Below are positions 6,699 to 52,938 of a DNA stretch of 64,000 nt, piece after piece (within the stretch, counting starts at the first letter, position 1; the number at the start of each line of letters is the position of its first letter). Origin of the DNA: Terriglobales bacterium (lineage in GTDB: Bacteria > Acidobacteriota > Terriglobia > Terriglobales > Acidobacteriaceae); the NCBI GenBank assembly GCA_049509755.1, contig JBEKZP010000001.1, positions 208,210-272,209 of the forward strand, given 5' to 3'. Position numbers and translations under genes: made by a program. The notes beneath the pieces are model-generated. The model was not told where the DNA came from and ran no database searches. It was given only the letters and a program-made list of their open reading frames with translations.

Positions 6699-6730
6699 AC
6701 CCCTCGGCCGCGCTCGGGGCAGGCTCCGAC
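6699..6730 (-). repeat. Copy of the dispersed ~30-nt element (GAGCCTGCCCCGAGCGCGGCCGAGGGGTG on the minus strand)
   Basis: Matches the consensus GAGCCTGCCCTGAGCGAAGTCGAAGGG. Confidence 0.7.
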
Positions 6731-6737
6731 AAGGAGC

Positions 6738-6850
6738 ATTTCGTAATTTGGTAATTGGGTAATTTAGTAATTTGCCGGTTTTCTAATTCACATCGAACGT
6801 ACTCGGGTTCAAGAATTACCAAATTAGCAACTTACGAAATTGCTAAATCT
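6738..6850. repeat. AT-rich GTAATTT-family hairpin downstream of the MBL-rhodanese gene
   Basis: tcgtaatttggtaattgggtaatttagtaatttg ... caagaattaccaaattagcaacttacgaaattgctaaatc. Confidence 0.75.
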
Positions 6851-6893
6851 CCTTCCGTGCCTCCGTGCCTCCGTGTCTCCGTGGTGAGCTTCC

Positions 6894-7655
6894 CTACTGC
6901 CCGCCGTGGTGATGCTCCATCTGCTTCTCGACCGACCAGATGGCGTCCTGCGTCTTCTCGTTGGGATAGACGTGCACCATCCAGCCGAAAATCTGCGGAC
7001 GGAACCTGCCGCCGGCGGCGGTACATTCCTGCTCGGTGGAAATGGAGCCCAGCAATCCGAACTTTGCCTTGGGCCCGAAGTATTCGCTCTCGCGGCCCCG
7101 GGGCGCGCCGCAAAAGTTCACGTGCTCGTGCCAGCGCGCGATGCTCAGCGGAACGCGCGTGTCCAGTTCGTCGGCGTTCACCCTGGCGGGCGCGGTGTAC
7201 ATCACCCCGATCAGCTTGTAACCGCCGTCATTGGTTTTCTCGTACAGCAGCGACGTCGGATGATCCGGATTCAGCCGGAACGCCGCCTCCATCGCGTACC
7301 CGGCGTTGGTGAAGTGGTACATCTTCTGCTTCCTGTTGGGCAGGAAGATGCGAAAGCCGTCGGCGAGCGCGTCGTGATAATCGGCGTAGCGCTGCATGAC
7401 GCCGTTGGCCGCCAGCACGATCTCGTCGGCGCGCTGCTGATCGCCCGGGCGCACGGGCCGCATCTCGGTCATCTTCATGTGTGGGCCCATGTCCATGTGG
7501 CGGTGGGACATGGCATGCATGGCATGGTCCATGCCATCTTCCGATTGCGATTGCGCAGGCTTCTGTTGCTCGCCCTCGGCGGACATATGTTCATGTTGCG
7601 CGGCGGCAGACGTCGTCAGCAGGCACGCCACGACAATCAGGAAATAGCGTTTCAT
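6894..7655 (-). CDS. Secreted His/Met-rich protein (candidate periplasmic metal-binding protein). The start is taken at Met17, which opens the signal peptide
   Basis: MKRYFLIVVACLLTTSAAA signal peptide followed by HEHMSAEGE...MDHAMHAMSHRHMDMGPHMKM. No family was recognised. Confidence 0.6.
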   Translation of the reverse strand: MKRYFLIVVACLLTTSAAAQHEHMSAEGEQQKPAQSQSEDGMDHAMHAMSHRHMDMGPHMKMTEMRPVRPGDQQRADEIVLAANGVMQRYADYHDALADGFRIFLPNRKQKMYHFTNAGYAMEAAFRLNPDHPTSLLYEKTNDGGYKLIGVMYTAPARVNADELDTRVPLSIARWHEHVNFCGAPRGRESEYFGPKAKFGLLGSISTEQECTAAGGRFRPQIFGWMVHVYPNEKTQDAIWSVEKQMEHHHGGQ

Positions 7656-7740
7656 CGGCTTACCCCACATCCTTAGAACCCCAATTTTAGCGCGAAGACG
7701 CAAGAGAGTGGCTGCCGGTACGTGTTGGGTTAATGGGGAT

Positions 7741-7905
7741 AAGGGCTGTGGCTGTTGAAAAACTCACTTGCCGGAAATCCGCAGAAATTAGGTCGCGTCA
7801 GGATGCCCTACAAACGATTTTCTCTGGTCGCCTAGACATTTTCTATCCCCCAAATTTGCTGTGGTTTCTGAAATCTCGAGTTTTTCAACAGCCACGGCTG
7901 TTATC
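7741..7905. mobile_element. MITE-like element: ~45-bp imperfect terminal inverted repeats with a 21-bp near-identical core (GCTGTGGCTGTTGAAAAACTC) flank a ~70-bp AT-rich core
   Basis: The left end gctgtggctgttgaaaaactcacttgccggaaatccgcagaaatt matches the reverse complement of the right end aatttgctgtggtttctgaaatctcgagtttttcaacagccacggctgtt. It lies in a low-GC pocket. Confidence 0.5.
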
Positions 7906-8024
7906 AATAGTCTGGCAGGCGCCGCACGGCAATGACATGACGAACGTGACTCAGGCCTCGTATCGCTTTCGACACGGAACCGCGGATCTCTTGGCCGCGC
8001 GAGAAGCGGACCTCGACACGAAAT

Positions 8025-8618
8025 TTAAGCGGAATGGTATGTTGCGCGATTCTTGGTCAAGCCGAGCCGGTTCTTGAACAGGGCCAAGCCTCCCACACAT
8101 AACAGGCCCACGCCGAGGAACGGCAGCGAAGCGCCTTCCGGAATCGGGACAGACGTGATGGTCAAGTTAACTGGTCCCCAGAGACTTGGATTGTCCAAGT
8201 CTTGCACGAAGAAGGGGAACGGATTGGTGACGCTTACGTGCTCAAGGAGCCATTGATCGCCGTTGGCGTTGAAGGTGATTTGGTTATGCAGAATGCTACT
8301 GGACAGTTGCCCAGTCGGGTCGACAAGGTTCGTGCATGGGGCGAACGTAATTCCCATCGCGTACTGGTTGGCGTTCGGGGCATTGCCCACGCTAAGCGTT
8401 CCTGCCAGCGAGTTGATGGTGTAAAACCCATTCGTGCCGGTCTGTGTGCACTGCGGACTTGCGTCGAAGGTTCCGCTGCCACTTATGTTCGTCACGGGCG
8501 TACTGTTCACCTGGTAGGTTTGAAACGAGAATTGAAACAGGTCTGCGTGTGCGTTGGACGGCATCAGCAGCAGCATGACGAAAATGCCCATCACCGCCAC
8601 CCGAAATTCAATTCTCAT
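8025..8618 (-). CDS. PEP-CTERM sorting-domain protein (exosortase substrate), secreted
   Basis: N-terminal signal peptide, and the C-terminal VPIPEGASLPFLGVGLLCVGGLALFKNR motif (a PEP/PEG motif followed by a TM helix and a basic tail). Confidence 0.7.
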   Translation of the reverse strand: MRIEFRVAVMGIFVMLLLMPSNAHADLFQFSFQTYQVNSTPVTNISGSGTFDASPQCTQTGTNGFYTINSLAGTLSVGNAPNANQYAMGITFAPCTNLVDPTGQLSSSILHNQITFNANGDQWLLEHVSVTNPFPFFVQDLDNPSLWGPVNLTITSVPIPEGASLPFLGVGLLCVGGLALFKNRLGLTKNRATYHSA

Positions 8619-9105
8619 AAGTCCTCTCCCTGTGCTTCTTGCACCACGACAGAAGACCTGGCAGTATCCCTGCCCAACTGCGTCTTCTTAATCAAACACC
8701 GAGCGGCTTAGGGACATACAAATCCCCTTGGCCATCATGATTTCAGCTCTGAGTTGTACCTAGGCGTGCAATTGATGTGCCATACGCTGCGAAATCCCTA
8801 AACGACTTACGCTTGGCCGACGCGTGCAGTAGCAACTTTCTTTCACAAAAAGGGAAAAGACTTGGTCCGAGCACGAGCTGGATGGCCCCGACGTACAGGT
8901 CGCATTTGCGGTGACGTAAGGATTAGGAAATCTCGCTCGGAATTACGAGTGGCGGCCCAAGTCAACCGCACCGGATGTGGACTGGTTCCGCAGCCTTACC
9001 CACTGGCGCGGATATCGGCTTGGGCGTAAGAAGTGATATGGGCTGTTCACGCCAGCTTACCCTGCAAGCCGCTTGACAGGTACAAGAACTCGGCATTGCG
9101 TTAAC

Positions 9106-9624
9106 ATGGCGAACATGAATACACCCCAACGGCAGCAATGGCTTACGCGAGCAATGGTGCTGGTCGTGGTGTTCGTGGCTGCCGTGAGTATGCACATGGA
9201 GCGGTTACGCGGGTGGGGATTCCTTGTTCTCTGCTTCGTCGTCGGGTCGATAGGAGGGTTGGGATTTGTGTGGGTAAAGGGCCGATTCCAGTTGGCTTGG
9301 AATGGGCTACCCAAAACGCGACAGGCGGTTCTCGTTGGCGCTGCTATCGCCGTCGTGCTGGTCGCAGCCTTCATCTTGAATTACGGCAGCCCGGACGCGG
9401 CTTTTAACAATTTCGTGACCGTGGGTTGCATCATTCTCGCCTTACTGCTGTGGGCCTGTATCGATTCTTATCGCGCCTTCTTGATGCCATTTGGGCGCAC
9501 TTCGCTAATCGGTAGGAACACCGACTGGATGCGAATTCATGCTAACTGTTGTGAAATCCCCTTATCACCAGTGACGGCTTTCGTGCCGTCCCTACGGGAC
9601 TCTGAAGTTCTTTTAGCCAGCTAA
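9106..9624 (+). CDS. Hypothetical integral membrane protein (4 predicted TM helices). The start is chosen at MANMN
   Basis: Hydrophobic segments VLVVVFVAAV, FLVLCFVVGSIGGLGFVWV, AVLVGAAIAVVLVAAFIL and VTVGCIILALLLWACI. No family was recognised. Confidence 0.5.
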   Translation: MANMNTPQRQQWLTRAMVLVVVFVAAVSMHMERLRGWGFLVLCFVVGSIGGLGFVWVKGRFQLAWNGLPKTRQAVLVGAAIAVVLVAAFILNYGSPDAAFNNFVTVGCIILALLLWACIDSYRAFLMPFGRTSLIGRNTDWMRIHANCCEIPLSPVTAFVPSLRDSEVLLAS

Positions 9625-9655
9625 CCCCGGGCTTACGCCCGGGGCTAGTTTCTGC
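9625..9655 (+). terminator. Rho-independent terminator candidate
   Basis: GC hairpin ccccgggcttacgcccgggg followed by the T-rich ctagtttctg, immediately after the stop of the upstream gene. Confidence 0.5.
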
Positions 9656-9762
9656 CGCCGCTACGCGGCTGGATTCGCGACTGGCGATCAATCCCATATC
9701 ACCAGCAATCCCCGTTGGTTTCCGCGCGCTGCTTAAGTTCAGTAGCTCGTGCGCGAGCCCCG

Positions 9763-9794
9763 CAGAGCCTGCCATGAGCGAAGTCGAAGGGTCA
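9763..9794 (+). repeat. Copy of the dispersed ~30-nt element
   Basis: cagagcctgccatgagcgaagtcgaagggtca. Confidence 0.7.
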
Positions 9795-9833
9795 GTGCCG
9801 GGAAAGCTCACACCAAATCTCTTCCCAGTCCCG

Positions 9834-9866
9834 TAGAGCCTGCCCTGAGCGCAGTCGAAGGGGACG
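9834..9866 (+). repeat. Copy of the dispersed ~30-nt element
   Basis: tagagcctgccctgagcgcagtcgaaggggacg. Confidence 0.7.
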
Positions 9867-9895
9867 GCACGAATGGCGTCAAATTACCCGCCGCT

Positions 9896-10705: not shown

Positions 10706-10858
10706 GGTCGCCTCCCCTTCGCTTGCGAGCTTGCCGCGGCTGTCCCGGCGACAAGGTTCACCCCGGACAATTACCACCTGGCGCCAACAATTACGGTGAT
10801 GGGCCTCACCGTTGCGCGTGCGCCTTTTCGGGGTTACCAGATGAGAACGGCTGTGAGT

Positions 10859-11092: not shown

Positions 11093-11168
11093 TGGGAAAT
11101 AGAGTACCCGCCGGGGTGGGCAGAAACCGTGACGCGCATCACATCCGAGGCAGGCGAATCAGGGTTGT

Positions 11169-11360: not shown

Positions 11361-11526
11361 GCTATGTGCTCGGTGAGTCGGGGAACGTTTGCCAGATTAT
11401 CGCAAACCAGGAAGGTCCGAAATTCGGCGTTTCGGATTCGAGTTCCGCACTTCGGCCACCACAGCCGACGATAACGGCCTTGCTCTCCAGCCAGCGAATG
11501 TACCACCGTCTGGTTTGAATTGCACC

Positions 11527-13189: not shown

Positions 13190-13202
13190 GAAAAAACCTT
13201 GG

Positions 13203-13280
13203 CCACGGATTTACACGGATACACACGGATCAACCAAAACAGATAAGAAGAAATCCGTGAGCATCCGTGAGAATCCGTGG
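13203..13280. repeat. Hairpin of tandem CACGGAT-type units and their complement between hemY and hemH
   Basis: ccacggatttacacggatacacacggat ... atccgtgagcatccgtgagaatccgtgg. Confidence 0.75.
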
Positions 13281-14297
13281 CTAGCCTTTTGATTTTATCT
13301 GCACCAGCGGTTTCGTGGGTTCCGGCTGCTCCAGGCGCGAGCGCGCAACGTCGGCAATCGCGGCCAGGAACGCAGGCGAATCGTTCAGCGACTCGGCGCG
13401 CCACAGCCGCATGCCCTGCTTCCCGGCGAACTGCCGGAAGCCGATGTCAATGTCGTACAGCACCTCGACGTGGTCGCAAACAAAACCAATCGGCTGGATG
13501 AACACGCCGCGGTGTCCTTTGGCTTGGAGCGCGAGAATCGTGTCCTCGACCGTCGGCCCGAGCCACGCGCCACCCGACATGCCCTGGCTCTGGAAGGCGA
13601 AGGTCCAGTCGTCGCCGTGGAGCGACGGGACTTCCATGGCGACCATCTCCGCGGTTTCTCTCGCCTGCTGCTCGTAAGGATCGCCGGCCTCGATGGTGCG
13701 GGTTGGAACGCTGTGCGCGGTAAAGATGATGGGCAGGCGCGCGCCCATTTCGTCACCGGCGCGTTTCCAGCCGGCTTGCAGTTTTTCGGCAAAGGCGCGG
13801 ATGAGCAGCGGGTGATCGTGCCAGTTCTCAACAAAGTCGATGGCGAAGGGCGGCTCGCCCAGCGCGCGCCGGTAAAGCCCGACGCTGGTCTGCGAGTTCT
13901 GCGGCGCCAGACAGATGACGACCGCGTTCGTGATGCCGTCTCTCGCCATTTGTTGAACCGTGTCGGCGATGAAGGGCTTCCAATTGCGCATGCCGACGTA
14001 CACCCGCGTTCGAGGGCGAACGCGCTCCAACTCGCGTTGTACGCCATTGGCCTGCTTCATGGTGATTTCCGTGAGCGGCGAGTGGCCGATGAGCCCGTAG
14101 CGATGCTTGATCTCTTCGACGACCGGCGGAGGAAGAGGGCGTCCGGCGATGTTGCGCAGGAATTCCGGGACCTCGTCAGGTGTGTCGGGATTGCCGTGGG
14201 CGAGCAGGAGGACCCCCGTCGATGGTCCCCTCGGCTTCGCTCGGGGCAGGCTCTGGTCGGCGGTCGACGGGGAATTCACTGCGCTTCGCCGAACCAT
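13281..14297 (-). CDS. hemH: Ferrochelatase. The ORF track extends to 14537, but the N-terminal 80 aa are Arg/Pro junk. The start is taken at Met81 and the true start remains uncertain (see 14226-14257)
   Basis: GVLLLAHGNPDTPDEVPEFLRNI...RYGLIGHSPL ferrochelatase N-terminus, and a characteristic length. Confidence 0.8.
   Translation of the reverse strand: MVRRSAVNSPSTADQSLPRAKPRGPSTGVLLLAHGNPDTPDEVPEFLRNIAGRPLPPPVVEEIKHRYGLIGHSPLTEITMKQANGVQRELERVRPRTRVYVGMRNWKPFIADTVQQMARDGITNAVVICLAPQNSQTSVGLYRRALGEPPFAIDFVENWHDHPLLIRAFAEKLQAGWKRAGDEMGARLPIIFTAHSVPTRTIEAGDPYEQQARETAEMVAMEVPSLHGDDWTFAFQSQGMSGGAWLGPTVEDTILALQAKGHRGVFIQPIGFVCDHVEVLYDIDIGFRQFAGKQGMRLWRAESLNDSPAFLAAIADVARSRLEQPEPTKPLVQIKSKG
14226..14257 (-). 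repeat. Copy of the dispersed ~30-nt element at the hemE/hemH junction, inside the annotated 5' end of hemH
   Basis: The minus strand reads gaccagagcctgccccgagcgaagccgaggggac (encoding DQSLPRAKPRG). Confidence 0.65.
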
Positions 14298-15349
14298 TCG
14301 ACCCTGGCGGCCGTCGCGTACTTCGCCGAATAGTGGTGCACGAAATCGCAAAGGTCCTTCACGTGGTCCACGGGTGTGTCGGGCAGAATGCCGTGGCCGA
14401 GGTTGAAAATGTGACCGGGGCGTCCGCCGGCGCGCTGCAGCACGTCTTCCGCCTGGGCGTGGATTTCCTTCTTGTTGGCGAACAGCACCACGGGATCGAG
14501 ATTGCCCTGCACGGCGCCGCCGCCGATGTTCTTCCACGCGGCATCCAGCGGGATGCGCCAGTCCACGCCGATCACGTCGGCGCCGGTTTCCTTCATCGCC
14601 GGCAGCAGCATGGCCGTGTCGGTGCCGAAATAAATCACCGGCACGCCGGCGTGCTTGACGCGCTGCACCAGTTCGGTGGTACGCGGCAGCACGAACCGCC
14701 GGTAGTCGGCGAGGCTGAGGCAGCCGACCCAGGAATCGAAGATCTGCACCACGTCGGCGCCACTGCGCGCCTGCTCGATCACGTAATCGCCGAGCACGGA
14801 GATGAGCTTGGCCATCATCTCGTCCCAGGCGTCGGGGGTGCGGTACATGAGTTTCTTGGTCTCGACGTAGTTGCGCGAGCCGCCGCCTTCGATCATGTAG
14901 CTGGCCAGGGTAAAGGGCGCGCCGCAGAAGCCGATGACCGGCAGCTTCGGCCCGAAGTGCTGCACCACCAGGCGCACCGAATCCGCAACGTAATTGAGAT
15001 CGGCGGCCAGGTCCACGCGCAGCGCGTGTACATCCGCGGCGGTGCGCACCGGCTTCTCGATCACCGGCCCTTCGCCCGCCTGGAAGTGGAATGGAATGCC
15101 CATCACTTCCAGGGGCAGCAGCAGGTCGGCAAAAATGATGGCTGCGTCCACGCCGAGGATCTCCGCCGCTTCAATGGTGACCTGCGCCGCCAGCTTGGGT
15201 GTTTTGCAGATTTCGACGATCGAGTGGTGCTTGCGCACCTCGCGGTACTCGGCCATGTAGCGGCCCGCCTGGCGCATGAACCACACCGGCGTTACCGGCG
15301 TTGGCTGGCCCTTGCAGGCACGGACAAAGTGGGATTCGGGGGCTGACAT
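14276..15349 (-). CDS. hemE: Uroporphyrinogen decarboxylase
   Basis: PVWFMRQAGRYMAEYR signature N-terminus, 357 aa. Confidence 0.9.
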   Translation of the reverse strand: MSAPESHFVRACKGQPTPVTPVWFMRQAGRYMAEYREVRKHHSIVEICKTPKLAAQVTIEAAEILGVDAAIIFADLLLPLEVMGIPFHFQAGEGPVIEKPVRTAADVHALRVDLAADLNYVADSVRLVVQHFGPKLPVIGFCGAPFTLASYMIEGGGSRNYVETKKLMYRTPDAWDEMMAKLISVLGDYVIEQARSGADVVQIFDSWVGCLSLADYRRFVLPRTTELVQRVKHAGVPVIYFGTDTAMLLPAMKETGADVIGVDWRIPLDAAWKNIGGGAVQGNLDPVVLFANKKEIHAQAEDVLQRAGGRPGHIFNLGHGILPDTPVDHVKDLCDFVHHYSAKYATAARVEWFGEAQ

Positions 15350-15373: not shown

Positions 15374-15408
15374 ACGGTTCCTTCGCTACGCTCAGGACAG
15401 GCTTTGGT
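15374..15408 (-). repeat. Diverged copy of the dispersed ~30-nt element upstream of hemE
   Basis: The minus strand reads gaccaaagcctgtcctgagcgtagcgaaggaaccg. Confidence 0.55.
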
Positions 15409-16779: not shown

Positions 16780-16811
16780 TGGAGCCTGCCCTGAGCGAAG
16801 TCGAAGGGGAC
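16780..16811 (+). repeat. Copy of the dispersed ~30-nt element
   Basis: tggagcctgccctgagcgaagtcgaaggggac. Confidence 0.7.
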
Positions 16812-18200: not shown

Positions 18201-19546
18201 CAGAATCTTCTCCAGAGTTGGCGTGCGCAGGCGGTGGCTTTTTCGGCGACGGCGCGCTCGTCCACGTTGACGAACTGCCGGTCGCGAATGACGAAGCGGC
18301 CGTTCACCACCAGCGAATCCACCGGCGCGTGCGCAATGCCGAACAGCGCGTGGCCGAAGATGTTGTCGCTGGTGAGCGGCGTGGGCGGAAAGTAGTCATA
18401 GAGCACCAGGTCGGCGCGCGCCCCTGCTTCGATGCGTCCGATGTCCAGGTTCCAGACCTTCCGGGCGATGGTGCGATTGTTGAGCAGCGCCAGCGCGTAA
18501 GCTTCCGCGTAGGCAACGCGCGGATCGCCGGCGCGCATTTTCTGGACGTGGAAGGCGGTCTTGAACTCGTCCCACATGCGCGGGCTGTAACCGTCGGAGC
18601 CGAGGCCGACCAGCACGCCGGCTTTCACCATCTCCAGCACGCGTGCCGCTCCCACCGCGTTGTTGCAATTCGATTGCGGGTTGTGAACCACGTTGATCTG
18701 GTGGCGCGCCAGCGCCGCGATGTCGGCGCCGCTTACGTGAATGCAGTGCGCGGCCAGCGCGCGATCGTCGAGTACGCCCAGTTCATGCAGCCGGCGCACC
18801 GGAGATTTCCCGTGCTTCCTGCGGGCATCGTCGTTGTCGCTGCGGTCTTCGGAAACGTGCACGTGGAATCCGGCTTGCAGCGATTCGTTCGCTTCCACCG
18901 AGCGGCGCAGCGTGCGATCGCTCAGGGTGAAAGAAGCGTGCAGGCCGAAGCTGGCGTTCACCAGCCCGTTTGACTTGCGCGCGCGCTCGATGAAGCGGAC
19001 GTTTTCGTCGATTCCTTCCTGCGCGTTCCTCGGGCCGTTGCGGTCGGTGGTTTCGTAGCAGAGCACCCCGCGCAATCCGACCTCGCGAAAGGCACGCTCA
19101 ATCACGTCGAGGCTGCCGCTGACCGCCGATGGACTGGAATGGTGGTCCACCAGCGTGCCCACGCCGCAGCGCGCCGAATCCATCACGCCGACCAGCGCGC
19201 TGTAGTAGATGTCCTGCTGGTTGAGCGCGCGGTCGAGCCGCCACCACAGCTTTTTCAGAATTTCGGGAAAATTCTTCGGCGGCGTGCCCGGCAGCGAGAT
19301 GCCCCGCGCCAGCGTGCTGTAGAGATGGGTGTGGCAGTTGATGAGCGCGGGCATGAGCAGGCGGCCGCGCGCGTCGATCCTTTCCACGGAATCTGCACAC
19401 GCGAGGGCGCCCTTCGACAAGCTCAGGGCAGGCTGTGTGCCACACACTTCGCCAATGCTGCCGTCATCGCGCACCTCGACCGTGCCGCAATCCAGCACGC
19501 GGTTGCGCGAGTCGAGGGTCAGGATGCGGGCGTTTTCGATGATCAT
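18200..19546 (-). CDS. ssnA: SsnA-type amidohydrolase (chlorohydrolase/aminohydrolase family). The start is at MIIENARIL, with an ATGA overlap onto the carbamate kinase stop
   Basis: LINCHTHLYSTLARG...NLWWRLDRAL pattern as in E. coli SsnA. Contains an in-frame copy of the 30-nt element (TQPALSLSKGA). Confidence 0.75.
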   Translation of the reverse strand: MIIENARILTLDSRNRVLDCGTVEVRDDGSIGEVCGTQPALSLSKGALACADSVERIDARGRLLMPALINCHTHLYSTLARGISLPGTPPKNFPEILKKLWWRLDRALNQQDIYYSALVGVMDSARCGVGTLVDHHSSPSAVSGSLDVIERAFREVGLRGVLCYETTDRNGPRNAQEGIDENVRFIERARKSNGLVNASFGLHASFTLSDRTLRRSVEANESLQAGFHVHVSEDRSDNDDARRKHGKSPVRRLHELGVLDDRALAAHCIHVSGADIAALARHQINVVHNPQSNCNNAVGAARVLEMVKAGVLVGLGSDGYSPRMWDEFKTAFHVQKMRAGDPRVAYAEAYALALLNNRTIARKVWNLDIGRIEAGARADLVLYDYFPPTPLTSDNIFGHALFGIAHAPVDSLVVNGRFVIRDRQFVNVDERAVAEKATACARQLWRRF

Positions 19547-21590: not shown

Positions 21591-23760
21591 AGTGCGCGCG
21601 CCGCGGATTGGAAACTGCGTCCATCAGGAACTTGAGCTGCAAGTAAGGCAGCATGTCCACAGTATGCGGCGCGGCGCAGCCCGGTTTCAGTGACCAGGCT
21701 AGGACCGCGTGATCGGTAGTCCTGATTTGGATTTCCACGCTGCCGTCGTCGAAGACGGCGCGCTGCTGCTGCGCGTCCGACGTGAGCCGGTACGGCTTGC
21801 CGGCGATGGTGCCGTGAATGGTGTTGCCGCCGCTGGAAAAAGCCAGGAAGAAGCCATTGCGGCCGGCAAACTTCTGGTACGACTCCAGGCTGCCGAAGAA
21901 GCGCGGCTTCTCGATTTGCGGGCCGCCGTCCTCGGGGCAGAAGACATCGCAATTACCGCAGTCGTTGCAGGCGTCGGCGTAGTTGGCGAACTGATGCGCG
22001 CGCGCCACCTTGAATGTGCCGCCGGGCACGGGGCGCGCTTCGCCGCCCGCAAGCAACTCGTAATTGCTGTAGGCGAAGTCGGCGGCGCCGGACTCGTAGA
22101 CGAAATTGGCGTCGTTGGGGCAGACCGGAACGCACTTGTCGCAACTGATGCAGTCGTAGAGCCACAGCTTGGAGCCGATCTTGCGCGGCGCCGCCTTGTT
22201 CTTTTTCCACCGATAGCGCGGGTCGGCGGTGGTGCGCTCCACGATCGAAGGCGTGTTGAGCACGCCCGCGGCTTCCACCAGCGTGCGCTCCAGCCCGACA
22301 AGTTCGTCCTGGAGGGCGTCGGCGAGCGAATGTGGAAGCTGCGGGATACGGCCGGGAGTGAATTCGCGCTGGATATCGGCGCAGACCTCATTCAGCGCCG
22401 CGCCCGGAGTCGCGAGCCAGGCTTTCAGCCGCGCGGCGACAACGGCTTCGATGGCGGAGGCGGCGCCGGGAAAACGCTTTCCGAGCGCCGTTACCACGGA
22501 GTTGATGGCCACCTCGCCCTGGCCGGCGTAGCGGACGACAAAGTCATGAATCCGAGGCGCGCCAAGCTCGCGCATTTTCGCGCCCAGGTTTTCCAGGTAC
22601 CTGGGAAGCCGCGCGTAGCCGCCGGGGCGCAGCAGGTCGGTGCAGGTGGTGACGGGCACGAAATTCATGGCAACGGCGTTGCACACGTTGTGCTGGTCGA
22701 GGCCGGCGGAGAACGAAATGGGATACGCGGCGCCCATGTGCTCACGGAATTTCTTCACCAGGTTGAGCGTGACCACGTGCAGCGGCGGGCCGGACATGTA
22801 CATGACTTCGTCGGTGAACATCCGGCGGTGGTTCTTCACCACCAGCGTGTTGCTGAACTTGACGGCCAGGCGCTTGCCGCGGAAGCGCGCGACCCCGGCC
22901 AGGCGCGGCAGCATGGTGAGCGCGTCGGAAAACTGAAGGTCGTGCTCGAAGGCGTCGGCGGCGACCTGGATATCGCGATAGCCGAGCACGTCGTGCAGCA
23001 CATGTTTCACCTGCTCGAAGCCGAGCAGCGTGGGGTTGAGCTTGATGCAGACGTGCACATCCATCTCGGCGAGCAGAAAGGCGACGATGCCCTCGATCTC
23101 GTGCGCCGGGCAACCGTGGAAGGTGGAGAGCGTGATGGTGTCGCTGAGGCGCGTGGGGAAGGGCAGGTCGCGATAACGCGCCCACGGGCCGGTGAGGGTG
23201 GCGCGCAGTTCGTCAACGATGGCGCGCGCGTCCTTCATGCTCTCGATCCACTGGCGCACGCGCGGCGAGCGGATGCCCTCCAGGCTGTAGCCCACGCTCA
23301 TGTCGTAAATCGTGTCGGTGAAGGGGCCGGTGAATTCCTCGCCCAGCAGGCGCGAGGCTTTCAGGATCTCGATGAACATCATCGCGCCAACGTACTCGCG
23401 CAACGATTGTTCCAGCTTCAGCTCCTGCGACCACTCGACGTTGTACCCGACGTTGGTGGCGTCAATGCAGGGGCGCGGGATTTTGAGCTCGTCCATGATC
23501 TGCACCGTCTTGAGCTCGATGATGCGCGAGCCGGCGAGCCAGGAGAGAACGATGTTCTGCAACAGTTGATCGTGCGGGCCGGCGGCGGGCCCCACGGGAT
23601 TGGCGGCGCGCCGGCCATGAAACGTAACGGAAGTATCCAGGCCGCTCAGGCCGCGAAAGACCTTCGCCTTCGGCAGGTCGAAGATTTTTCCCTCGCGCTC
23701 ATATTCGAGAAATGCGCGCGTGAGCTGCAGCGGGAGCGGGATGGGGATGAGCTCGGACAT
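21547..23760 (-). CDS. ygfK: YgfK-family Fe-S oxidoreductase: an N-terminal YgfK/DHOD-like TIM-barrel region plus a C-terminal 2x[4Fe-4S] ferredoxin domain. The central FAD/NAD(P)-binding domain present in E. coli YgfK appears to be absent. Start at MSELIP; the upstream 23 codons are encoded by the hairpin repeat
   Basis: PVGPAAGPHDQLLQNIVLSWLAGSRIIELKTVQ, TLSTFHGCPAHEIE, IKLNPTLLGF, MYMSGPPLH and TDLLRPGGYARL match the E. coli YgfK N-terminal region. The ferredoxin cysteines are CISCDKCVPVCPNDAN and CNDCGNCDVFCPEDGG. It is 738 aa versus ~1030 aa in E. coli. Confidence 0.7.
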   Translation of the reverse strand: MSELIPIPLPLQLTRAFLEYEREGKIFDLPKAKVFRGLSGLDTSVTFHGRRAANPVGPAAGPHDQLLQNIVLSWLAGSRIIELKTVQIMDELKIPRPCIDATNVGYNVEWSQELKLEQSLREYVGAMMFIEILKASRLLGEEFTGPFTDTIYDMSVGYSLEGIRSPRVRQWIESMKDARAIVDELRATLTGPWARYRDLPFPTRLSDTITLSTFHGCPAHEIEGIVAFLLAEMDVHVCIKLNPTLLGFEQVKHVLHDVLGYRDIQVAADAFEHDLQFSDALTMLPRLAGVARFRGKRLAVKFSNTLVVKNHRRMFTDEVMYMSGPPLHVVTLNLVKKFREHMGAAYPISFSAGLDQHNVCNAVAMNFVPVTTCTDLLRPGGYARLPRYLENLGAKMRELGAPRIHDFVVRYAGQGEVAINSVVTALGKRFPGAASAIEAVVAARLKAWLATPGAALNEVCADIQREFTPGRIPQLPHSLADALQDELVGLERTLVEAAGVLNTPSIVERTTADPRYRWKKNKAAPRKIGSKLWLYDCISCDKCVPVCPNDANFVYESGAADFAYSNYELLAGGEARPVPGGTFKVARAHQFANYADACNDCGNCDVFCPEDGGPQIEKPRFFGSLESYQKFAGRNGFFLAFSSGGNTIHGTIAGKPYRLTSDAQQQRAVFDDGSVEIQIRTTDHAVLAWSLKPGCAAPHTVDMLPYLQLKFLMDAVSNPRRAHYANAAALTGANLAQ

Positions 23761-23865
23761 TGGGTAACTTGGTAATTGGGTAATTTCGTAATTTTGTAAT
23801 TTTCGAAACGCGCGCACGCAGCGCAACAAATTACCAAATTACCAATTTACGAAATTACAAAATTC
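23761..23865. repeat. AT-rich GTAATTT-family hairpin between ygfK-like and ygeY
   Basis: tgggtaacttggtaattgggtaatttcgtaattttgtaattttc ... caaattaccaaattaccaatttacgaaattacaaaattc. Confidence 0.8.
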
Positions 23866-23866
23866 T

Positions 23867-25117
23867 TTAACGGGCGCCCGCCTTCGCTGTCTGCTCGCGC
23901 TCCAGCGTGTGCACGAACACCAGCGGAAACGCGGCGTAGAACTGCGCCGCCTGCACCAGGTGGTCGATCGAGACACGTTCGGTGACGGCGTGCGCGTCCA
24001 CTTCGTTGCCCGGACCAAAGCCGACCGTGGGCACGCCGCACATTCCCATTGAGCCCACGCCGTTGGTGCTGAATACCCATTTGTCCACGACGGGCGCGCG
24101 GCCATGCAGCGCCTGGTACGTCTCCACCGCCGACTGCACCAGCGGATGATCCTCTTCGACCAGCCACGTCGGATAGTACTTCTCCATCGGATACACCACC
24201 CCGGTGTAGCTCGGCACCTCGTATTTCAGGATCTCGATCTCGGCGTCGCGTGCGCCGGAGAGGGCGCGAACTTCGGCAACCGCGCTCTCTTTCGTGTCGC
24301 CGGTGGTGAGCCGGCGGTCCAGGTGGATGGAGCACGCGCCCGGAACCGCGCACAGCGAGGGCGAAAGCGAGCGAATCTGCGTCACCGTAATCGTCCCCTT
24401 GCCCAGAAACTTGTCGTCGCGCAGCCGGGTGTTGAGTTGCTCGACTTCGCGCAGCAGCGTGGACATCTTGTAGATCGGGTTGTCGCCGCGCTCGGGCGCG
24501 CTGGCATGGCAGGAGCGCCCGCGGATGTGGACTTCAATCTCCATGCGCCCGCGCTGCCCGCGATAAACCTGCAGGTTCGTGGGCTCGGTGATGAGGACGC
24601 AATCGGGCTTGATGCCGTCTTCGCGCAGGATGTAGAGCCACGCCAAGCCGTCGCAATCCTCTTCCTGCACACTGCCGACGCACCACAGCGTGTAATCGCC
24701 GGCCAGTCCGAGTTCCTTGATCAGCTTGGCGCCGTAAACCATGCTGGCCATGCCGCAACGCTGGTCGCAGGCGCCGCGGCCATACACGTAGCCGTCCTCC
24801 ACCTTGCCCTGGTACGGGTCCCACTTCCATTCCTTCAGGTCGCCGACGCCGACCGTGTCGGTGTGCGAGTCCATCATGATGACGCGCTTGCCGCTCCCGA
24901 TGCGGCCGAGGATGTTGCCCATTTTGTCGATGCGGATTTCGTCGAAGCCGACCTGTTCCATTTCCCGCTTGATGCGCTGGATGACGGGCCCTTCCTGCGA
25001 ACTTTCGGCGGGAATGGCGATCAGGTCGCGCAGGAAGCGGACCATGGGCGGTTCGTACTTTTTGGCGCCGGCGGCAATGGCCGCGCGCTGCTGGCGAATG
25101 TTATCGAATGGGTTCAT
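23867..25117 (-). CDS. ygeY: YgeY-type M20 family peptidase/amidohydrolase
   Basis: MVRFLRDLIAIPAESSQEGPVIQRIKREMEQVGFDEIRIDKMGN...QEEDCDGLAWLYI...YRGQRGRMEIEV match E. coli YgeY. Confidence 0.85.
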   Translation of the reverse strand: MNPFDNIRQQRAAIAAGAKKYEPPMVRFLRDLIAIPAESSQEGPVIQRIKREMEQVGFDEIRIDKMGNILGRIGSGKRVIMMDSHTDTVGVGDLKEWKWDPYQGKVEDGYVYGRGACDQRCGMASMVYGAKLIKELGLAGDYTLWCVGSVQEEDCDGLAWLYILREDGIKPDCVLITEPTNLQVYRGQRGRMEIEVHIRGRSCHASAPERGDNPIYKMSTLLREVEQLNTRLRDDKFLGKGTITVTQIRSLSPSLCAVPGACSIHLDRRLTTGDTKESAVAEVRALSGARDAEIEILKYEVPSYTGVVYPMEKYYPTWLVEEDHPLVQSAVETYQALHGRAPVVDKWVFSTNGVGSMGMCGVPTVGFGPGNEVDAHAVTERVSIDHLVQAAQFYAAFPLVFVHTLEREQTAKAGAR

Positions 25118-28000: not shown

Positions 28001-28929
28001 AGGGTGTACTCCGCTTGCTGGGCGCACGCGAGGAGAGCGCGGCGGGCCAGCACCTGGCTGATCTCGCGGCGGTACTCCGCCGAGGCGCGCTGATCGGTAA
28101 TCGGCTGGACTTCGCGCGCAACGGATTCGGCGGCGCGATCGATCAGATCGCGGGTGAGGGCTTTGTCGACGAGCAGCGCTTCAGCCTGATCCGCGCGCAT
28201 GGGGGCGGGGGCCACAGCGCCGAGCGCGAGGCGTGCCCACGCGCACGTGCCATCGCGCGCGATGCCCAGGCCGGCGGCAACATTGACCACGGCGATGTCG
28301 GTTTCGGTCCGCCCGAACTTTTGGAACGACCACCCGGCCCGGCCTTTGTTCCTGGGGACGAAGACCTGCACCAGCAGTCCACCGTTGATGCGCCGCTTCT
28401 GCGGCAAAGCGAAAAATTCGCGCAGCGTGATGCGGCGGCGGCCGTTCTTGGTTTGCACGACGACCGATGCGTCCATGGTGAGCAGCGGTGTCGCGGTATC
28501 GGCCGCGGGGGAACCGTTGGCCAGATTTCCGCCGATGGTTGCCAGGTTGCGAATCTGGATGGACCCGCAGGTGGCGGCGGCACGGGAAAGAATGCCGCCG
28601 GCGAGTCCACGTACGATCGGCGAATGTTCCAGCGCCGACATGGTGCAGGCGGCCCCGATGTCGCATCCGTTGCCGTCGCGGCGGATGTAGTCGAGGCCGA
28701 GATGCTTGACGTCAACCAGGAACCGGACGGAGCGGTCTCGCAGCAGCGCAAGATCGGTGCCGCCGGCAAGAACGCGGCCCGGGCCGCTGTGCAGCAGGCG
28801 CACCGCCTCGCGGACGCTCCTCGGCTGGTAGAAAGCTTGAATGTGGTCGAACACTGCGTTCTCCAATCTCCGCGTGAGGGGGAGCCCGGGTGAGAACTGC
28901 AAAATTGGTGAGCTAAGACAAACGGTCAA
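27997..28929 (-). CDS. ygfM: FAD-binding subunit of the molybdenum hydroxylase (YgfM / CoxM family). The start is uncertain
   Basis: AGGTDLALL...IRNLATIGGNLANGSPAADTATPLL FAD-binding motifs of the CO dehydrogenase flavoprotein family. Confidence 0.8.
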   Translation of the reverse strand: MTVCLSSPILQFSPGLPLTRRLENAVFDHIQAFYQPRSVREAVRLLHSGPGRVLAGGTDLALLRDRSVRFLVDVKHLGLDYIRRDGNGCDIGAACTMSALEHSPIVRGLAGGILSRAAATCGSIQIRNLATIGGNLANGSPAADTATPLLTMDASVVVQTKNGRRRITLREFFALPQKRRINGGLLVQVFVPRNKGRAGWSFQKFGRTETDIAVVNVAAGLGIARDGTCAWARLALGAVAPAPMRADQAEALLVDKALTRDLIDRAAESVAREVQPITDQRASAEYRREISQVLARRALLACAQQAEYTL

Positions 28930-48835: not shown

Positions 48836-48842
48836 AAAAAGT

Positions 48843-48916
48843 GGCAGTGATCAGTGCTCAGTGGCCAGCAGTCAATGGCAAGAACTGGCCACTAGCCACT
48901 GACCACTGGCCACTCA

Positions 48917-48917
<1 letters not shown>
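48843..48917. repeat. Hairpin of tandem CAGTGRYCA-type units and their complement
   Basis: ggcagtgatcagtgctcagtggccag ... ctggccactagccactgaccactggccactcac. Confidence 0.7.
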
Positions 48918-50077
<1,160 letters not shown>

Positions 50078-50084
50078 AAAGGCA

Positions 50085-50135
50085 GCTCTTAGCTTTTAGC
50101 TTTTAGCTATTAGCAATTAGCGACTTCGTCCAGCA
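50085..50135. repeat. Tandem TAGCTTT-type heptamer repeat forming a partial hairpin
   Basis: agctcttagcttttagcttttagctattagcaattagc. Confidence 0.55.
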
Positions 50136-50743
50136 GCTAATCGCTTCAGTTCACAAAAAACTTGTTCCACCTGCCGTTCCGTCTCCGCGCGCGAACCCGA
50201 ATTGTCGATCACGTAATCCGCGGCGCGAATCTTTTCTTCATCCGAACGCTGCGCCGCCTGTCGCCGCTCAACCTCCTGCCGCGCCGCTTCGTCCGTGATG
50301 CCCTGGCGCTCCGCAAAGCGCGCCGCCTTCTGCTCCGGCCGGCAGGTCACCACGACGATCTTGTCGAAGCGCTTTTGTACGCCCGCTTCCAGGATCAGCG
50401 CCGCCTCCACGATGACCACCGCGTCGCGATGGCGCGCGGCCTCCTCTTTCATCCAGCGCTCCTGGTGCGCGATGACCGCCGGATGGACCAGCCGGTTCAG
50501 TTCCTCGACGCGCCCGCCGCCGAAGGCCGCCCGCGCCAGCTTCTGCCGGTCGATGGTCCCATCTTCATGGACAATGCCACCGCCGAAATGTTGCACGACT
50601 TCCCGGTACACCGGCTGCCCCGGCCGCATGAGCTGGTGCGCGATCTCGTCGGCCTTGATCAGCCTGGCCCCGCGCGCCACGAACATTTCGCCGACCGTGG
50701 ACTTGCCGCATGCCACGCCGCCGGTCAACCCCACTTTGAGCAA
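50117..50743 (-). CDS. coaE: Dephospho-CoA kinase (TTG start)
   Basis: GLTGGVACGKST P-loop, ~208 aa. Confidence 0.85.
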   Translation of the reverse strand: MLKVGLTGGVACGKSTVGEMFVARGARLIKADEIAHQLMRPGQPVYREVVQHFGGGIVHEDGTIDRQKLARAAFGGGRVEELNRLVHPAVIAHQERWMKEEAARHRDAVVIVEAALILEAGVQKRFDKIVVVTCRPEQKAARFAERQGITDEAARQEVERRQAAQRSDEEKIRAADYVIDNSGSRAETERQVEQVFCELKRLAAGRSR

Positions 50744-50786
50744 ACACTGCCTCGTTCGATAAGAGTCGTACTACGACATGATTGAA

Positions 50787-51728
50787 TTACCGCGCCGCCA
50801 TCGCCGGAACCTTGGCGCCGCGGCGCATCTTGCACGCCCGGAGCGTGTTCACCATCAGCATGGCGATGGTTAGCGGGCCGACGCCGCCGGGCACGGGCGT
50901 GATGGCGCCGGCGATTTCCGCCACGTGCGGATCCACGTCGCCTATCAACGTCGAACCCCGCTCCGCGAACGATTTCTCCCGCTTCTCGTTGCCCTTGAAA
51001 AATTTGTCGAACTCGGCGCGGTCGGTGATCTTGTTCATGCCCACGTCAATCACGGTCGCGCCCGGCCGCACGTAGTTCTTGTCGATCATGCCGGTGCGGC
51101 CCATGGCACATACCAGAATGTCGGCGCGGCGGCAGACGCCCGGCAGGTCGCGCGTCTTGGAATGGCAGATGGTCACTGTGGCGTGGTTGTTGGTCAGCAG
51201 CATTGCCGTGGGCTTGCCGACGATGTCGCTGCGGCCCACCACCACCGCTTCCGCGCCGGCGATTGGGATGTCGCTGCGCCGCAGGACTTCGATGATGCCC
51301 TCGGGAGTGCACGGCACCAGGCCCGGCCGTTGCGTCGAGAGGAACCCAACGTTGACCGGGTGGAAGCCATCCACGTCCTTCGCCGGGTCCACGGCCATGA
51401 GCACGCGCTTGGAATCCACTTGCTTGGGCAGCGGAAGCTGGACCAGGATGCCGTCGATTTCGTCGCGCGAGTTCAGGTCGTGCACCAGCGCGAGCAGTTC
51501 GTCGGTGGTGGAGGTGTCGGGCGGGGTGTGCTTCTCGCTGTAGATGCCCAGCGCCTCGCAGCTTTTCACCTTGCCGCGCACGTAGATTTCCGAGGCGGGA
51601 TTGTTGCCCACCAGGATGACCGCCAGCCCCGGCCGAATGCCGGCAGCAGTCATGCCCTTCGCCTCGTCGGCGACTTCGGCCTTGATGGCGGCGGCGATTT
51701 TTTCGCCGTCCAAAATTCTGGCAGCCAT
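50787..51728 (-). CDS. folD: Bifunctional methylenetetrahydrofolate dehydrogenase/cyclohydrolase
   Basis: ILDGEKIAAAIKAEV...AVILVGNNPASEIYVRGK...GILVQLPLP. Confidence 0.9.
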   Translation of the reverse strand: MAARILDGEKIAAAIKAEVADEAKGMTAAGIRPGLAVILVGNNPASEIYVRGKVKSCEALGIYSEKHTPPDTSTTDELLALVHDLNSRDEIDGILVQLPLPKQVDSKRVLMAVDPAKDVDGFHPVNVGFLSTQRPGLVPCTPEGIIEVLRRSDIPIAGAEAVVVGRSDIVGKPTAMLLTNNHATVTICHSKTRDLPGVCRRADILVCAMGRTGMIDKNYVRPGATVIDVGMNKITDRAEFDKFFKGNEKREKSFAERGSTLIGDVDPHVAEIAGAITPVPGGVGPLTIAMLMVNTLRACKMRRGAKVPAMAAR

Positions 51729-51800
51729 GATTCCTCACTCAGTATGAAGATAAATACAGCAGAACATTGTACTTTAGGCGCGAGGCATGCATACGCCGAT

Positions 51801-52532
51801 ATGAAGCCACAAGCGCAAGAGCGACGCATCGGGCTGGCGCGGGCGATGTCGAAGCGCGGCAGTTGCTCGCGTTCGCAGGCGAGCGAGATGATCCGCGCCG
51901 GGCGGGTGCGTCTGAACGGCAAAGTGCGGCGCGATCCGGAAACGCCGGTGCGTCTGGAACGCGATCGGATCACGCTCGACGGACAGCCGCTCCAGGCACT
52001 AGAGAAGGTCTACCTGATGCTGAACAAGCCGCGCACCGTGGTTACGACGGCATCGGACGAAGCGGGGCGGAAGACGGTGTACGCCTGCCTGCCACCGGGG
52101 CTGCCGTGGGTGGCGGCGGTGGGCCGTCTGGATATGGCGAGCGAGGGCCTGCTGCTGATGACCAACGATTCGGAGTGGGCGGCGCGGATCACGGCGCCGG
52201 AGTCGCACCTGGACAAGCGGTATCACGTGCGGGTGGGCGCGAAGGCGGAAGAGGAATTGCTTCAAAAGATGATGGCGGGCGTGGAGAGCGAGGGTGAGTG
52301 GCTGCGGGTGAAGCGGGTCGAAGTGCTGCGCCACGGAGGGCGCAATTGCTGGCTTAAGGTGGTGCTGGACGAGGGCAGGAACCGGCAGATTCGCAGGATC
52401 ATGCAGGCGCTGGGAGTGGAGGTTTTGAGGCTGGTGCGGGTAGCGATCGGGCCGGTGGAGCTGGGTGAGCTGAAAAAAGGGCAGGCGCGACGGTTAACGC
52501 CAAAAGAGAAGGCCGCGTTGGATGATTTGTGA
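51801..52532 (+). CDS. Pseudouridine synthase, RsuA/RluB family (S4 domain plus catalytic domain). The ORF track starts far upstream at 50925; the ATG at 51801 gives 243 aa
   Basis: GSCSRSQASEMIRAGRVRLNG S4 motif, and YLMLNKPRTVVTT plus GRLDMASEGLLLMTND around the catalytic Asp. Confidence 0.8.
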   Translation: MKPQAQERRIGLARAMSKRGSCSRSQASEMIRAGRVRLNGKVRRDPETPVRLERDRITLDGQPLQALEKVYLMLNKPRTVVTTASDEAGRKTVYACLPPGLPWVAAVGRLDMASEGLLLMTNDSEWAARITAPESHLDKRYHVRVGAKAEEELLQKMMAGVESEGEWLRVKRVEVLRHGGRNCWLKVVLDEGRNRQIRRIMQALGVEVLRLVRVAIGPVELGELKKGQARRLTPKEKAALDDL

Positions 52533-52605
52533 TTTAGCGATTTGTGATTTGCGGGAAGTCGTCAGTCTTCGGCGGTCAGTGCCAGTGACTGAGGACTGAA
52601 GACCA
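52533..52605. repeat. Tandem GATTTGT-type repeats followed by a CAGTGAC-type inverted repeat
   Basis: tgatttagcgatttgtgatttgcg ... agtcgtcagtcttcggcggtcagtgccagtgactgaggactgaagac. Confidence 0.55.
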
Positions 52606-52610
52606 ATGGC

Positions 52611-52787
52611 CTAGTGCCAGAAGGGGTCGCCGATGCCGGTTGGCTTGAGGGCGGAGTCGGGCGTGTCTGCCGTGGTGTTCCACTTTCCGGGCTCGGAATC
52701 GCGCTGCGGTGGCGGCGGAAAATCATCTCCTGTACAGCCGCACGGATTCAAGTTCGTGTATTCGGAATGGCAGTTGGGGCAAACCAT
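52611..52787 (-). CDS. Small zinc-ribbon protein (58 aa). It is not in the ORF track
   Basis: A GGGAGG RBS 6 nt upstream of the ATG. MVCPNCHSEYTNLNPCGCTGDDFPPPPQRD... has a CPxC...CxC cysteine cluster and is flanked by repeat elements. Confidence 0.5.
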   Translation of the reverse strand: MVCPNCHSEYTNLNPCGCTGDDFPPPPQRDSEPGKWNTTADTPDSALKPTGIGDPFWH

Positions 52788-52908
52788 GGGATCGCCTCCC
52801 TATACAGATACGAGCTTAGGGAAATCAAGGCAGGCAGGGAAATTCAAAATTTAGTTAGGCGCGATTCAGAAAAATAATGGAAGAACGGGGAAGCGGCGCC
52901 GCGGTGCA

Positions 52909-52938
52909 GCCGTTCCCTTCGACTTCGCTCAGGGTCAC
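52909..52938 (-). repeat. Copy of the dispersed ~30-nt element. The minus strand contains the exact core CCCTGAGCGAAGTCGAAGGG
   Basis: The plus strand reads gccgttcccttcgacttcgctcagggtcac. Confidence 0.7.

Follow-up and report, generated by a model that had tools for sequence, protein, structure and literature searches.

A 64,000-nucleotide stretch of contig JBEKZP010000001.1 from a Terriglobales bacterium (the window) carries a short dispersed repeat in eight copies, seven of them extragenic and one inside the gene ssnA. An earlier note made from the sequence had drawn attention to this repeat and had left its nature open between a protein-binding site, a small RNA module and a tiny mobile element. 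The best reading of the data presented here is that the repeat is a new variant of the repetitive extragenic palindromic (REP) class of miniature mobile DNA, with a core that is unusually widespread and invariant.

Eight copies of the repeat in the window

The repeat is real and non-random. A search of the window with its 27-mer, allowing up to three mismatches, gave 4 matches against 0.00 in shuffled sequence, the 20-mer core gave 5 against 0.01, and a relaxed regular expression returned the full set of eight sites. The identical sites were recovered with a covariance model, R1, which was built from 64 diverse family members and run on the window without filters (exactly eight sites, 24.5 to 34.5 bits, E ≤ 7.5e-5; next match, 16.4 bits). 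Weak R1 matches at 28212 and 37739 were looked at, do not resemble copies and were dismissed. By these searches, every one of the eight positions listed in the earlier note holds the repeat; its title spoke of at least nine copies, although its own list names eight and eight were found. The density of one copy per 7 kb from which it extrapolated is a weak basis for a genome-wide estimate, since seven copies are clustered within 6.7 to 19.4 kb and the eighth lies at 52.9 kb. The copies have no coding capacity of their own; the one in ssnA contributes eight residues to SsnA.

Copy 1 (6700..6725, minus strand; AGCCTG CCCC GAGCGCGGCCGA GGGG; R1, 26.3 bits) lies 22 nt past the stop of a plus-strand rhodanese/metallo-beta-lactamase gene, antisense to that gene, and abuts an octamer-repeat hairpin at 6737-6852. 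An Acido-Lenti-1 RNA precedes copies 2 and 3, both of which lie between convergent genes. Copy 2 (9766..9791, plus strand; AGCCTG CCAT GAGCGAAGTCGA AGGG; 24.5 bits) sits within a hairpin, CCCCGCAG...GTGCCGGG; at the same place in locus L155 (99% protein identity) this hairpin is plain and intact, CCCGGCAC TGCC GTGCCGGG, the copy in the window filling its loop. The site of copy 3 (9837..9862, plus strand; AGCCTG CCCT GAGCGCAGTCGA AGGG with flanks CCCGT/ACGG; 32.1 bits) is filled in L155 and L126 and empty in L125. The Acido-Lenti-1 RNA itself (Rfam RF01687, 54.2 bits; 9625-9670, plus strand) directly follows an open reading frame at 9073-9624, stands about 100 nt upstream of the two copies and marks the genome as acidobacterial.

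Copy 4 (14227..14252, minus strand; AGCCTG CCCC GAGCGAAGCCGA GGGG inside a CCCCGTCGA/TCGACGGGG stem; 32.4 bits) separates hemE from hemH and shares their strand. In L121, which is about 95% identical, this place holds no copy, only CATCGAC heptamer repeats. The hemE and hemH gene calls overlap there (L121 11420-11560), whereas in the window (14150-14330) they are kept apart by the repeat and its stem, so that the insertion occupies an operon junction and disrupts neither gene in an obvious way. Copy 5, a diverged variant (15379..15403, minus strand; AGCCTG TCCT GAGCGTAGCGA AGGA; 28.9 bits), is found in a divergent promoter region ahead of hemE; it is conserved in L121 and is therefore an older copy. 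Copy 6 has the consensus form (16783..16808, plus strand; AGCCTG CCCT GAGCGAAGTCGA AGGG with flanks CCCGT/ACGGG; 34.5 bits) and is located between two minus-strand genes, one for a pyridoxal phosphate enzyme and the other ridA (RidA), antisense to both, at a place taken by unrelated filler in L121 and L122. Copy 7 (19411..19434, minus strand; 32.0 bits) is a 24-nt in-frame insert, AGCCTGCCCTGAGCTTGTCGAAGG, in ssnA in the sense orientation. Copy 8 (52915..52940, minus strand; 32.7 bits) has another tag, GCGTGA, before an exact 20-mer core and lies antisense to both of its plus-strand neighbors, an rluB-like pseudouridine synthase gene and aroC. The orientation of the copies relative to transcription is thus mixed. 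A 38-nt version (family D5), which includes the CCCGT/ACGGG outer stem, is common to the copies at 9837 and 16783 alone.

The spacers of the window also hold inverted arrays of tandem 8-nt units, AATTACCN, which form long hairpins at 1265-1404 (beside a tRNA at 1198-1268), 6737-6852, 23750-23875, 54282-54371 and 54873-55003; a further inverted array at 13193-13290 has the unit CACGGATN. Homologous spacers in L121 carry other short tandem units, ATACTGAR and CATCGAC, which indicates that the 8-nt arrays turn over fast. Similar 7-8-nt arrays adjoin the repeat in loci of several other phyla.

The repeat unit and its insertion sites

The unit consists of an unpaired tag of 5-6 nt followed by an imperfect palindrome of 18-19 nt, 24-25 nt in all. 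The tag is AGCCTG in seven of the eight window copies, and the core can be written YCCY GAGC(GAAG/TTG/GTAG)(T)CGA RGGR, in which a 4-5 bp stem (CCCT/AGGG) closes a conserved 11-12 nt loop, GAGC(GAAG/TTG)TCGA. In the loci fetched for comparison (1.3 Mb), a stem other than CCCT/AGGG closes 42 examples of the 12-nt loop GAGCGAAGTCGA, and the four loop-proximal stem positions are paired in 90-95% of these copies, around which unrelated stem sequences such as GGGCT/AGCCC, GTGCT/AGCAC, ATCCT/AGGAT and GTTTC/GAAAC are found. As the stem varies but stays paired around a fixed loop, the repeat is a hairpin in which the stem covaries and the loop is conserved. The structural evidence is this covariation, not thermodynamic folding. 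The earlier note had pointed out the CCCT/AGGG complementarity, which is borne out, and had added that the element is not a simple hairpin, a wording that understates the conserved covarying stem.

The stem may continue into the loop through tandem G.A/A.G pairs and a G-C pair, as judged from the sequence and from known sheared G.A pairs. The complementary strand would then have C.T mismatches, which would make the structure strand-specific. A review (PMC13037366) describes DNA mini-hairpins with the motifs GCGNAGC and GCGNNAGC. Two window loops, GCGAAGC at 14227 and GCGTAGC at 15379, match the motif exactly, as do GCGATAGC and GCGCTAGC beside an Anaerolineales GIY-YIG nuclease gene described below; in contrast, loops with TTG or CTG are without the motif, and the dominant loop, GAGCGAAGTCGA, is longer by a T. 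The hammerhead core, group II intron domain V, the k-turn, the tRNA T-arm and rRNA fragments were compared with the repeat by eye; their defining positions do not fit, and no Rfam match falls on the repeat.

Three independent filled and empty site pairs are clean. Each differs by 24 nt, and none has a target duplication. In the first, the SsnA protein of the window reads ..GTQPALSLSKGALA.. where homologues 93-95% identical read ..GTR, a gap of eight residues, and ALA... The empty site in L121 and L122 (about 95% identical over 13 kb) is GGCACAC^GCGCCCT, at which the window has the 24 nt of copy 7; the ends of the insert are unambiguous, target-site duplication is absent, and the insert reads (Q)PALSLSK(G). 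The copy that the earlier note had placed inside ssnA is therefore real and in frame, and reads QPALSLSKG. The second pair is in a pyrroloquinoline quinone (PQQ) dehydrogenase gene of another acidobacterial order, where L105 has CGCGAC[CCTTCGACTTCGCTCAGGGCAAGC]GGCAAC and precisely the 24 nt of the insert are missing from L210 and L211; among homologues of this enzyme, the 8-residue segment PSTSLRA(S/G) is present, absent or decaying. The third is in a Saccharibacteria leucyl-tRNA synthetase (LeuRS) gene (L075), where two strain variants of the N terminus stand on one scaffold, one with a 24-nt GTTTA-plus-core unit and the other without it. That scaffold joins the two variants across a run of N, and its LeuRS open reading frame (minus strand, 0-based offsets 789-3222 of the reverse complement) contains the repeat-encoded peptides PFDFAQGKP, DPSTGSGRG and PFDKLRA.

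Further copies lie within DNA ligase, ComM and M20 peptidase genes in other phyla. The coding units of the three pairs are all 24 nt long, whereas the common intergenic form of the window, at 25-26 nt, would shift the frame, in line with selection for in-frame lengths inside genes. In the N-terminal surface loop of SsnA (window 19330-19520), homologues have other, longer inserts such as ..AGAERSSAVRQPSSP..SQSFALRQ.. and ..RRGTARRTLLVRPG..EGTASRTPTT.. (proteins P0030, P0051, P0057-P0060, P0071 and P0094). These resemble translations of other repeat families, suggesting that the loop is an insertion-tolerant hot spot.

Inverted repeats of at least 8 nt flank 11.5% of copies, compared with 1.6% of random sites, an enrichment that is real but confined to a minority of copies. 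A hairpin as an obligate target was considered and rejected: it fits the empty ssnA site, a perfect 9-bp palindrome (GCACACGCG CCCT CGCGTGTGC), and copy 9766, but fails at LeuRS and PQQ dehydrogenase. Collectively, these comparisons show that the unit enters DNA without duplicating its target, that it lands mostly in intergenic spacers and sometimes inside pre-existing hairpins, and that a unit whose length is divisible by three can be retained in frame where a protein loop tolerates it. Of the options left by the earlier note, the tiny mobile element is thus directly backed by the filled and empty sites. Its view that the copies form a distinct short-repeat family also holds, because conservation ends at the tag and core and no transposase is near; a fragment of an insertion sequence (IS) end was rejected on these grounds, the 38-nt version being shared by just two window copies.

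These observations bear on two other accounts of the repeat. The first is a structured RNA module, in which a transcribed hairpin would act as an mRNA 3'-end stabilizer, a terminator helper or a protein-binding site and would be kept by selection at the RNA level. The covariation of the stem is compatible with this, some G-T pairs (GGGCT/AGCCT) fit RNA or one DNA strand only, several copies lie just past stop codons or between convergent genes, and Di Nocera et al. argue that many REPs act as RNA (PMC3733652). An Rfam scan, suggested as a check by the earlier note, recovered only tRNA and Acido-Lenti-1 in the window at the gathering score and gave no match on the copies even at E ≤ 10, and the predicted RNA folding energy is no better than that of shuffles. 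Moreover, three of the eight window copies (6700, 16783 and 52915) are antisense to their flanking genes, inverted doublets place both orientations in a single transcript, copies lie within coding sequence in several phyla, and the same spacer can be filled or empty among close relatives. The mixed orientation, the coding copies and the site polymorphism argue against a primary RNA role, and we consider this account, including the small RNA module of the earlier note, unlikely.

The second account is a double-stranded DNA site for a conserved host protein (a nucleoid protein, gyrase or a recombinase), as proposed for the REPs and bacterial interspersed mosaic elements of Escherichia coli, in which binding specificity would keep the sequence identical across phyla. 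The 12-nt loop is extremely conserved across phyla, which suggests sequence-specific recognition, and host proteins have been reported to bind REPs (PMC2817692). The covarying stem, though, points to a folded single strand and not recognition of a duplex, and relatives of 95% identity do not keep the same sites occupied. Regulatory sites would not readily account for copies that lie in frame within genes, and no candidate protein was found. We regard a host-protein site as improbable.

Occurrence across bacteria and beside GIY-YIG nuclease genes

An exact-match scan for the 20-mer CCCTGAGCGAAGTCGAAGGG over one genome per species (185,579 species) found it in at least 120 loci from at least 17 phyla, where about 1.08 chance matches are expected. 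The matches listed include Acidobacteriota, Alpha-, Beta- and Gammaproteobacteria, Bacteroidota, Chloroflexota, Cyanobacteria, Patescibacteria, Spirochaetota, Verrucomicrobiota/Kiritimatiellia, Planctomycetota, Nitrospirota, Gemmatimonadota, Myxococcota, Omnitrophota, Dormibacterota, Actinomycetota and Bacillota, with cultured isolates among them; the listed loci do not include the source genome of the window. The spread of the family over most bacterial phyla is larger than the earlier note expected, and identity of a 20-base core over such a range calls for a recognition partner that is itself very conserved or for horizontal transfer that is still going on. Conservation outside the core is limited to a short tag that differs between lineages. 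Many phyla have GCCTG, sphingomonads have CCGTTCG, Bacteroidota and Chloroflexota have C/TGTCA, and Patescibacteria and others have GTTTA or GCTTG. Inverted doublets are frequent in sphingomonads and Bacteroidota. The repeat accounts for the widespread peptides PALSLSKG, PSTSLRA and FDFAQG in proteins and spurious open reading frames. Literature searches by DNA sequence, repeat-encoded peptide and keyword found nothing on this sequence.

The repeat is absent from 5,426 E. coli genomes and rare in viral contigs. Phage was rejected as its vector, as only 44 of 2.9 million IMG/VR contigs match and several of these matches fall in gene-transfer-agent-like clusters. In alphaproteobacterial head-tail clusters of this kind (L166, L168-L173, L177, L179, L180, L193, L204 and L205), the repeat stands at conserved positions among genes for the portal, S78 prohead protease, tail tube and GTA-gp10. 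Plasmid pIAE1 of Trichlorobacter lovleyi has six matching places; one copy, AGCCTGCCCTGAGCGTAGTCGAAGG (L213 2500-2527), lies in the 3' part of an IS91-family (Y2_Tnp) transposase gene that adjoins an ISL3 transposase gene and qacEdelta1-sul1. Such a context is a possible vehicle for moving the repeat between hosts.

The plasmid search also placed a copy in a Sphingomonas parapaucimobilis gene annotated as a GIY-YIG nuclease family protein (WP_347092679). An inverted doublet precedes this 106-residue gene by 45 nt, and a lone copy overlaps the 3' end of the gene. Further GIY-YIG loci were chosen by protein similarity alone. REP-type repeats adjoin the GIY-YIG gene at 13 of 17 loci, a set that includes two found through the repeat (L212 and L183), and at 11 of these 13 they stand on both sides. 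Repeat-flanked genes occur in Methylobacterium (two loci), Planktothrix, Anaerolineales, a low-GC bacterium, Nitrospirales and Ignavibacteria, and four IMG/VR contigs have GIY-YIG genes flanked by canonical TGTC ATCCCGGC GAAA GCTGGGAC CCA doublets. R1 gave 16 matches in about 22 kb of protein-selected GIY-YIG loci. As a control, three loci were widened to 20 kb: all six R1 matches in L235 (Anaerolineales) and all three in L236 (the low-GC bacterium) lie at most 500 nt from the GIY-YIG gene, the third locus, L237, being considered below.

The proteins encoded at these loci have about 95 residues and PF01541 only, and the nearest solved structure is that of UPF0213 protein 1ZG2. Over-long gene calls start or end in repeat-encoded peptides (VILSAAKNL, CHAERSEAS, DSSLRSE, LRLRSG and HGSTSSP). 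Many homologues (P0241-P0360) lie on contigs of only 500-1,500 nt, barely exceeding the gene, as expected of assemblies broken at flanking repeats; the repeat may thus explain fragmented assemblies around GIY-YIG genes.

Taken together, we consider it very probable that the repeat is a mobile REP-type DNA element. The explanation as a whole, a non-autonomous REP-type miniature mobile DNA hairpin, is in our judgment likely. A GIY-YIG step, in which a nuclease of the UPF0213 family would cut and spread the repeat in trans, or maintain it, is put forward tentatively from the comparison of loci, at somewhat less than an even chance. UPF0213-type GIY-YIG nucleases resemble the structure-specific nuclease Slx1. 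In the proposed mechanism, the folded single DNA strand would be the structure recognized, a small structure-specific UPF0213 GIY-YIG nuclease would act in trans and nick the folded repeat, and host repair or ligation would then complete excision, insertion or copying. The precedent is the RAYT transposase genes, which are bracketed by their REPs much as the GIY-YIG gene of other genomes is bracketed by the same repeats. If the proposal is true, the GIY-YIG/repeat system spans most bacterial phyla, including Patescibacteria, with repeats inside essential genes, and the repeat of the window is its Terriglobia branch.

Several observations weigh against this interpretation. With regard to structure, nearest-neighbor folding of the repeat gives -1.9 kcal/mol, no better than shuffles (RNA and DNA, z-scores -0.9 to +1.9), and the G.A and mini-hairpin part of the model goes beyond the covariation data. 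With regard to mobility, the filled and empty pattern of ssnA does not track the protein tree, so precise loss, repeated gain and allele recombination are all possible, and recombination could make some of the polymorphism. Intergenic comparisons are messy, spacers being replaced wholesale by other small repeats and not showing clean insertions, with the exception of copy 9766 in the loop of the hairpin that is intact in L155. With regard to the enzyme, no repeat lies near the GIY-YIG gene in L215, L217, L218 and L224 (the genes without adjoining repeats being those of Sphingomonas paeninsulae, Legionella, Cupriavidus and one distant homologue), and in L237 (Nitrospirales) the repeat fills most spacers, so adjacency proves little there. 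A hidden Markov model search found no GIY-YIG gene in the window or in any fetched Terriglobia locus, and in the repeat-selected loci only L183 and L212 were positive; for the window, the enzyme link is therefore extrapolated from other phyla. UPF0213-family homologues also turned up in Bacillus and Listeria in the plasmid search, and E. coli carries the UPF0213 gene yhbQ but no repeat, so only a subfamily can be involved. Finally, GIY-YIG enzymes cut DNA and do not rejoin it, so insertion would need host repair. We found no paper linking GIY-YIG genes to bacterial REPs, although coverage of the literature was incomplete and this is not proof of novelty.

The same loci could be viewed the other way round, with the GIY-YIG gene as a selfish homing gene that targets repeat clusters, as IS1397 and ISPpu9 do on REPs, and with the repeats spreading otherwise, for example by template switching at hairpins or through a Y1/HUH enzyme in trans. 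GIY-YIG genes do stand between complete doublets in otherwise unrelated contexts (rnc and era; a restriction-modification system and DISARM; a penicillin-binding protein gene and dinB), and single-strand Y1 transposition, as known in general from IS200/IS605 (PMC6006769), typically inserts DNA without duplicating the target. Yet the Anaerolineales gene keeps one context, having the same neighbors in all four places shown from different samples (14 more similar places were reported), and looks domesticated rather than actively homing, and L235 and L236 have no repeat cluster besides the one that holds the gene. Open reading frames within 2.5 kb of copies were also clustered over 164 repeat-bearing loci, and no Y1 or other transposase recurs; the only recurrent neighbors are phage or gene-transfer-agent genes, which related viral contigs share, and short-chain dehydrogenases, which were grouped by chance. 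A homing gene is accordingly, in our view, quite unlikely.

Comparison with known repeat classes

Few non-coding features of bacterial genomes are as abundant as REP-type repeats. To our knowledge, only the GTAG class of REPs has a known enzyme, the RAYT transposase, and the spread of the CGTC class has been an open question since 2013. Against this background, the present data define a mobile unit to the base, 24-25 nt including the tag and without target duplication, and propose a candidate enzyme, a GIY-YIG nuclease of about 95 residues bracketed by repeats. In the broad sense, REPs are short (20-40 bp) imperfect palindromes with a conserved stem-loop and many dispersed, mostly extragenic copies, and the repeat has all of these features.

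Other mobile families differ more clearly. Like Rickettsia palindromic elements, the repeat inserts in frame into protein genes, including essential ones, and is tolerated in surface loops. Those elements are about 100-150 bp long and restricted to Rickettsia, whereas the present unit has 24-25 nt and is pan-bacterial, so that size and taxon both set it apart. Like miniature inverted-repeat transposable elements, it is small, non-autonomous, dispersed and often found in intergenic spacers; that class was rejected because the repeat has no terminal inverted repeats (its ends are AGCCTG.. and ..CGAAGG), shows no target-site duplication in the three pairs and is several-fold shorter.

The CGTC-tagged REPs come closest. 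According to Di Nocera, De Gregorio and Rocco (2013, BMC Genomics 14:522, PMC3733652), they include Rickettsia RPE-4 and RPE-6 and Neisseria dRS3 and are defined by a CGTC, TGTC or CCTC tag, by a stem of 8-9 bp that closes a 4-5 nt loop and by a CCA tail; they are mostly inverted dimers from five phyla, some of them intragenic, and "Apparently lack a dedicated transposase". Their paper did not examine the GIY-YIG gene class. The repeat shares with them the short stem-loop, the unpaired tag at one end, the occurrence as singletons and inverted dimers, and the mostly extragenic and partly intragenic location. Canonical CGTC REPs occur beside the repeat in fetched loci, and the tag, the start of the stem and the CTTGT loop match, as seen when CGTC ACCCTGAA CTTGT TTCAGGGT CCA and CGTC ACCCTGAG CGAAGT CGAAGGGT CTC are set beside the ssnA form, CCCTGAG CTTGT CGAAGGG. 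The main difference lies in the inner stem, in that positions 6-7 of the eight stem positions are G.A/A.G mismatches in the repeat instead of Watson-Crick pairs. Its loop has 5 nt (CTTGT) or 6 nt (CGAAGT), its tail is GAC or CTC and not CCA, and the window copies have (A)GCCTG in place of a CGTC, TGTC or CCTC tag, C/TGTCA preceding the same core in Bacteroidota, Chloroflexota and other phyla. The exact core also reaches at least 17 phyla, including Patescibacteria, compared with the five phyla reported for the CGTC class. As in the CGTC class, no dedicated transposase is flanked by the repeat, though a GIY-YIG nuclease gene is. Compared with the published text definition, the repeat is best read as a variant allied to the CGTC superfamily and not as a proven member, because stem pairing, tail and, in the window, tag depart from that definition.

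The GTAG REPs, with their paired forms (REPINs) and RAYT (TnpA_REP) genes, together termed REPtrons, offer the parallel for the enzyme. Both systems combine a tag with an imperfect hairpin and form inverted doublets, REPtrons comprising hundreds of non-autonomous copies. The repeat differs in that its tag is neither GTAG nor GTGG, that the bracketed gene encodes a GIY-YIG nuclease (PF01541) and not a Y1 HUH enzyme (PF01797), and that its 20-mer is identical across phyla whereas GTAG REP sequences are species-specific. In REPtrons, a single-copy nuclease gene is bracketed by its own repeats, and the GIY-YIG loci have the same layout. It is conceivable, as a suggestion still short of an even chance, that the dedicated enzyme which the CGTC-type REP superfamily has seemed to lack is a UPF0213-type GIY-YIG nuclease, a domesticated enzyme that would form with its hairpin repeats a second REPtron-like partnership, independent of RAYTs.

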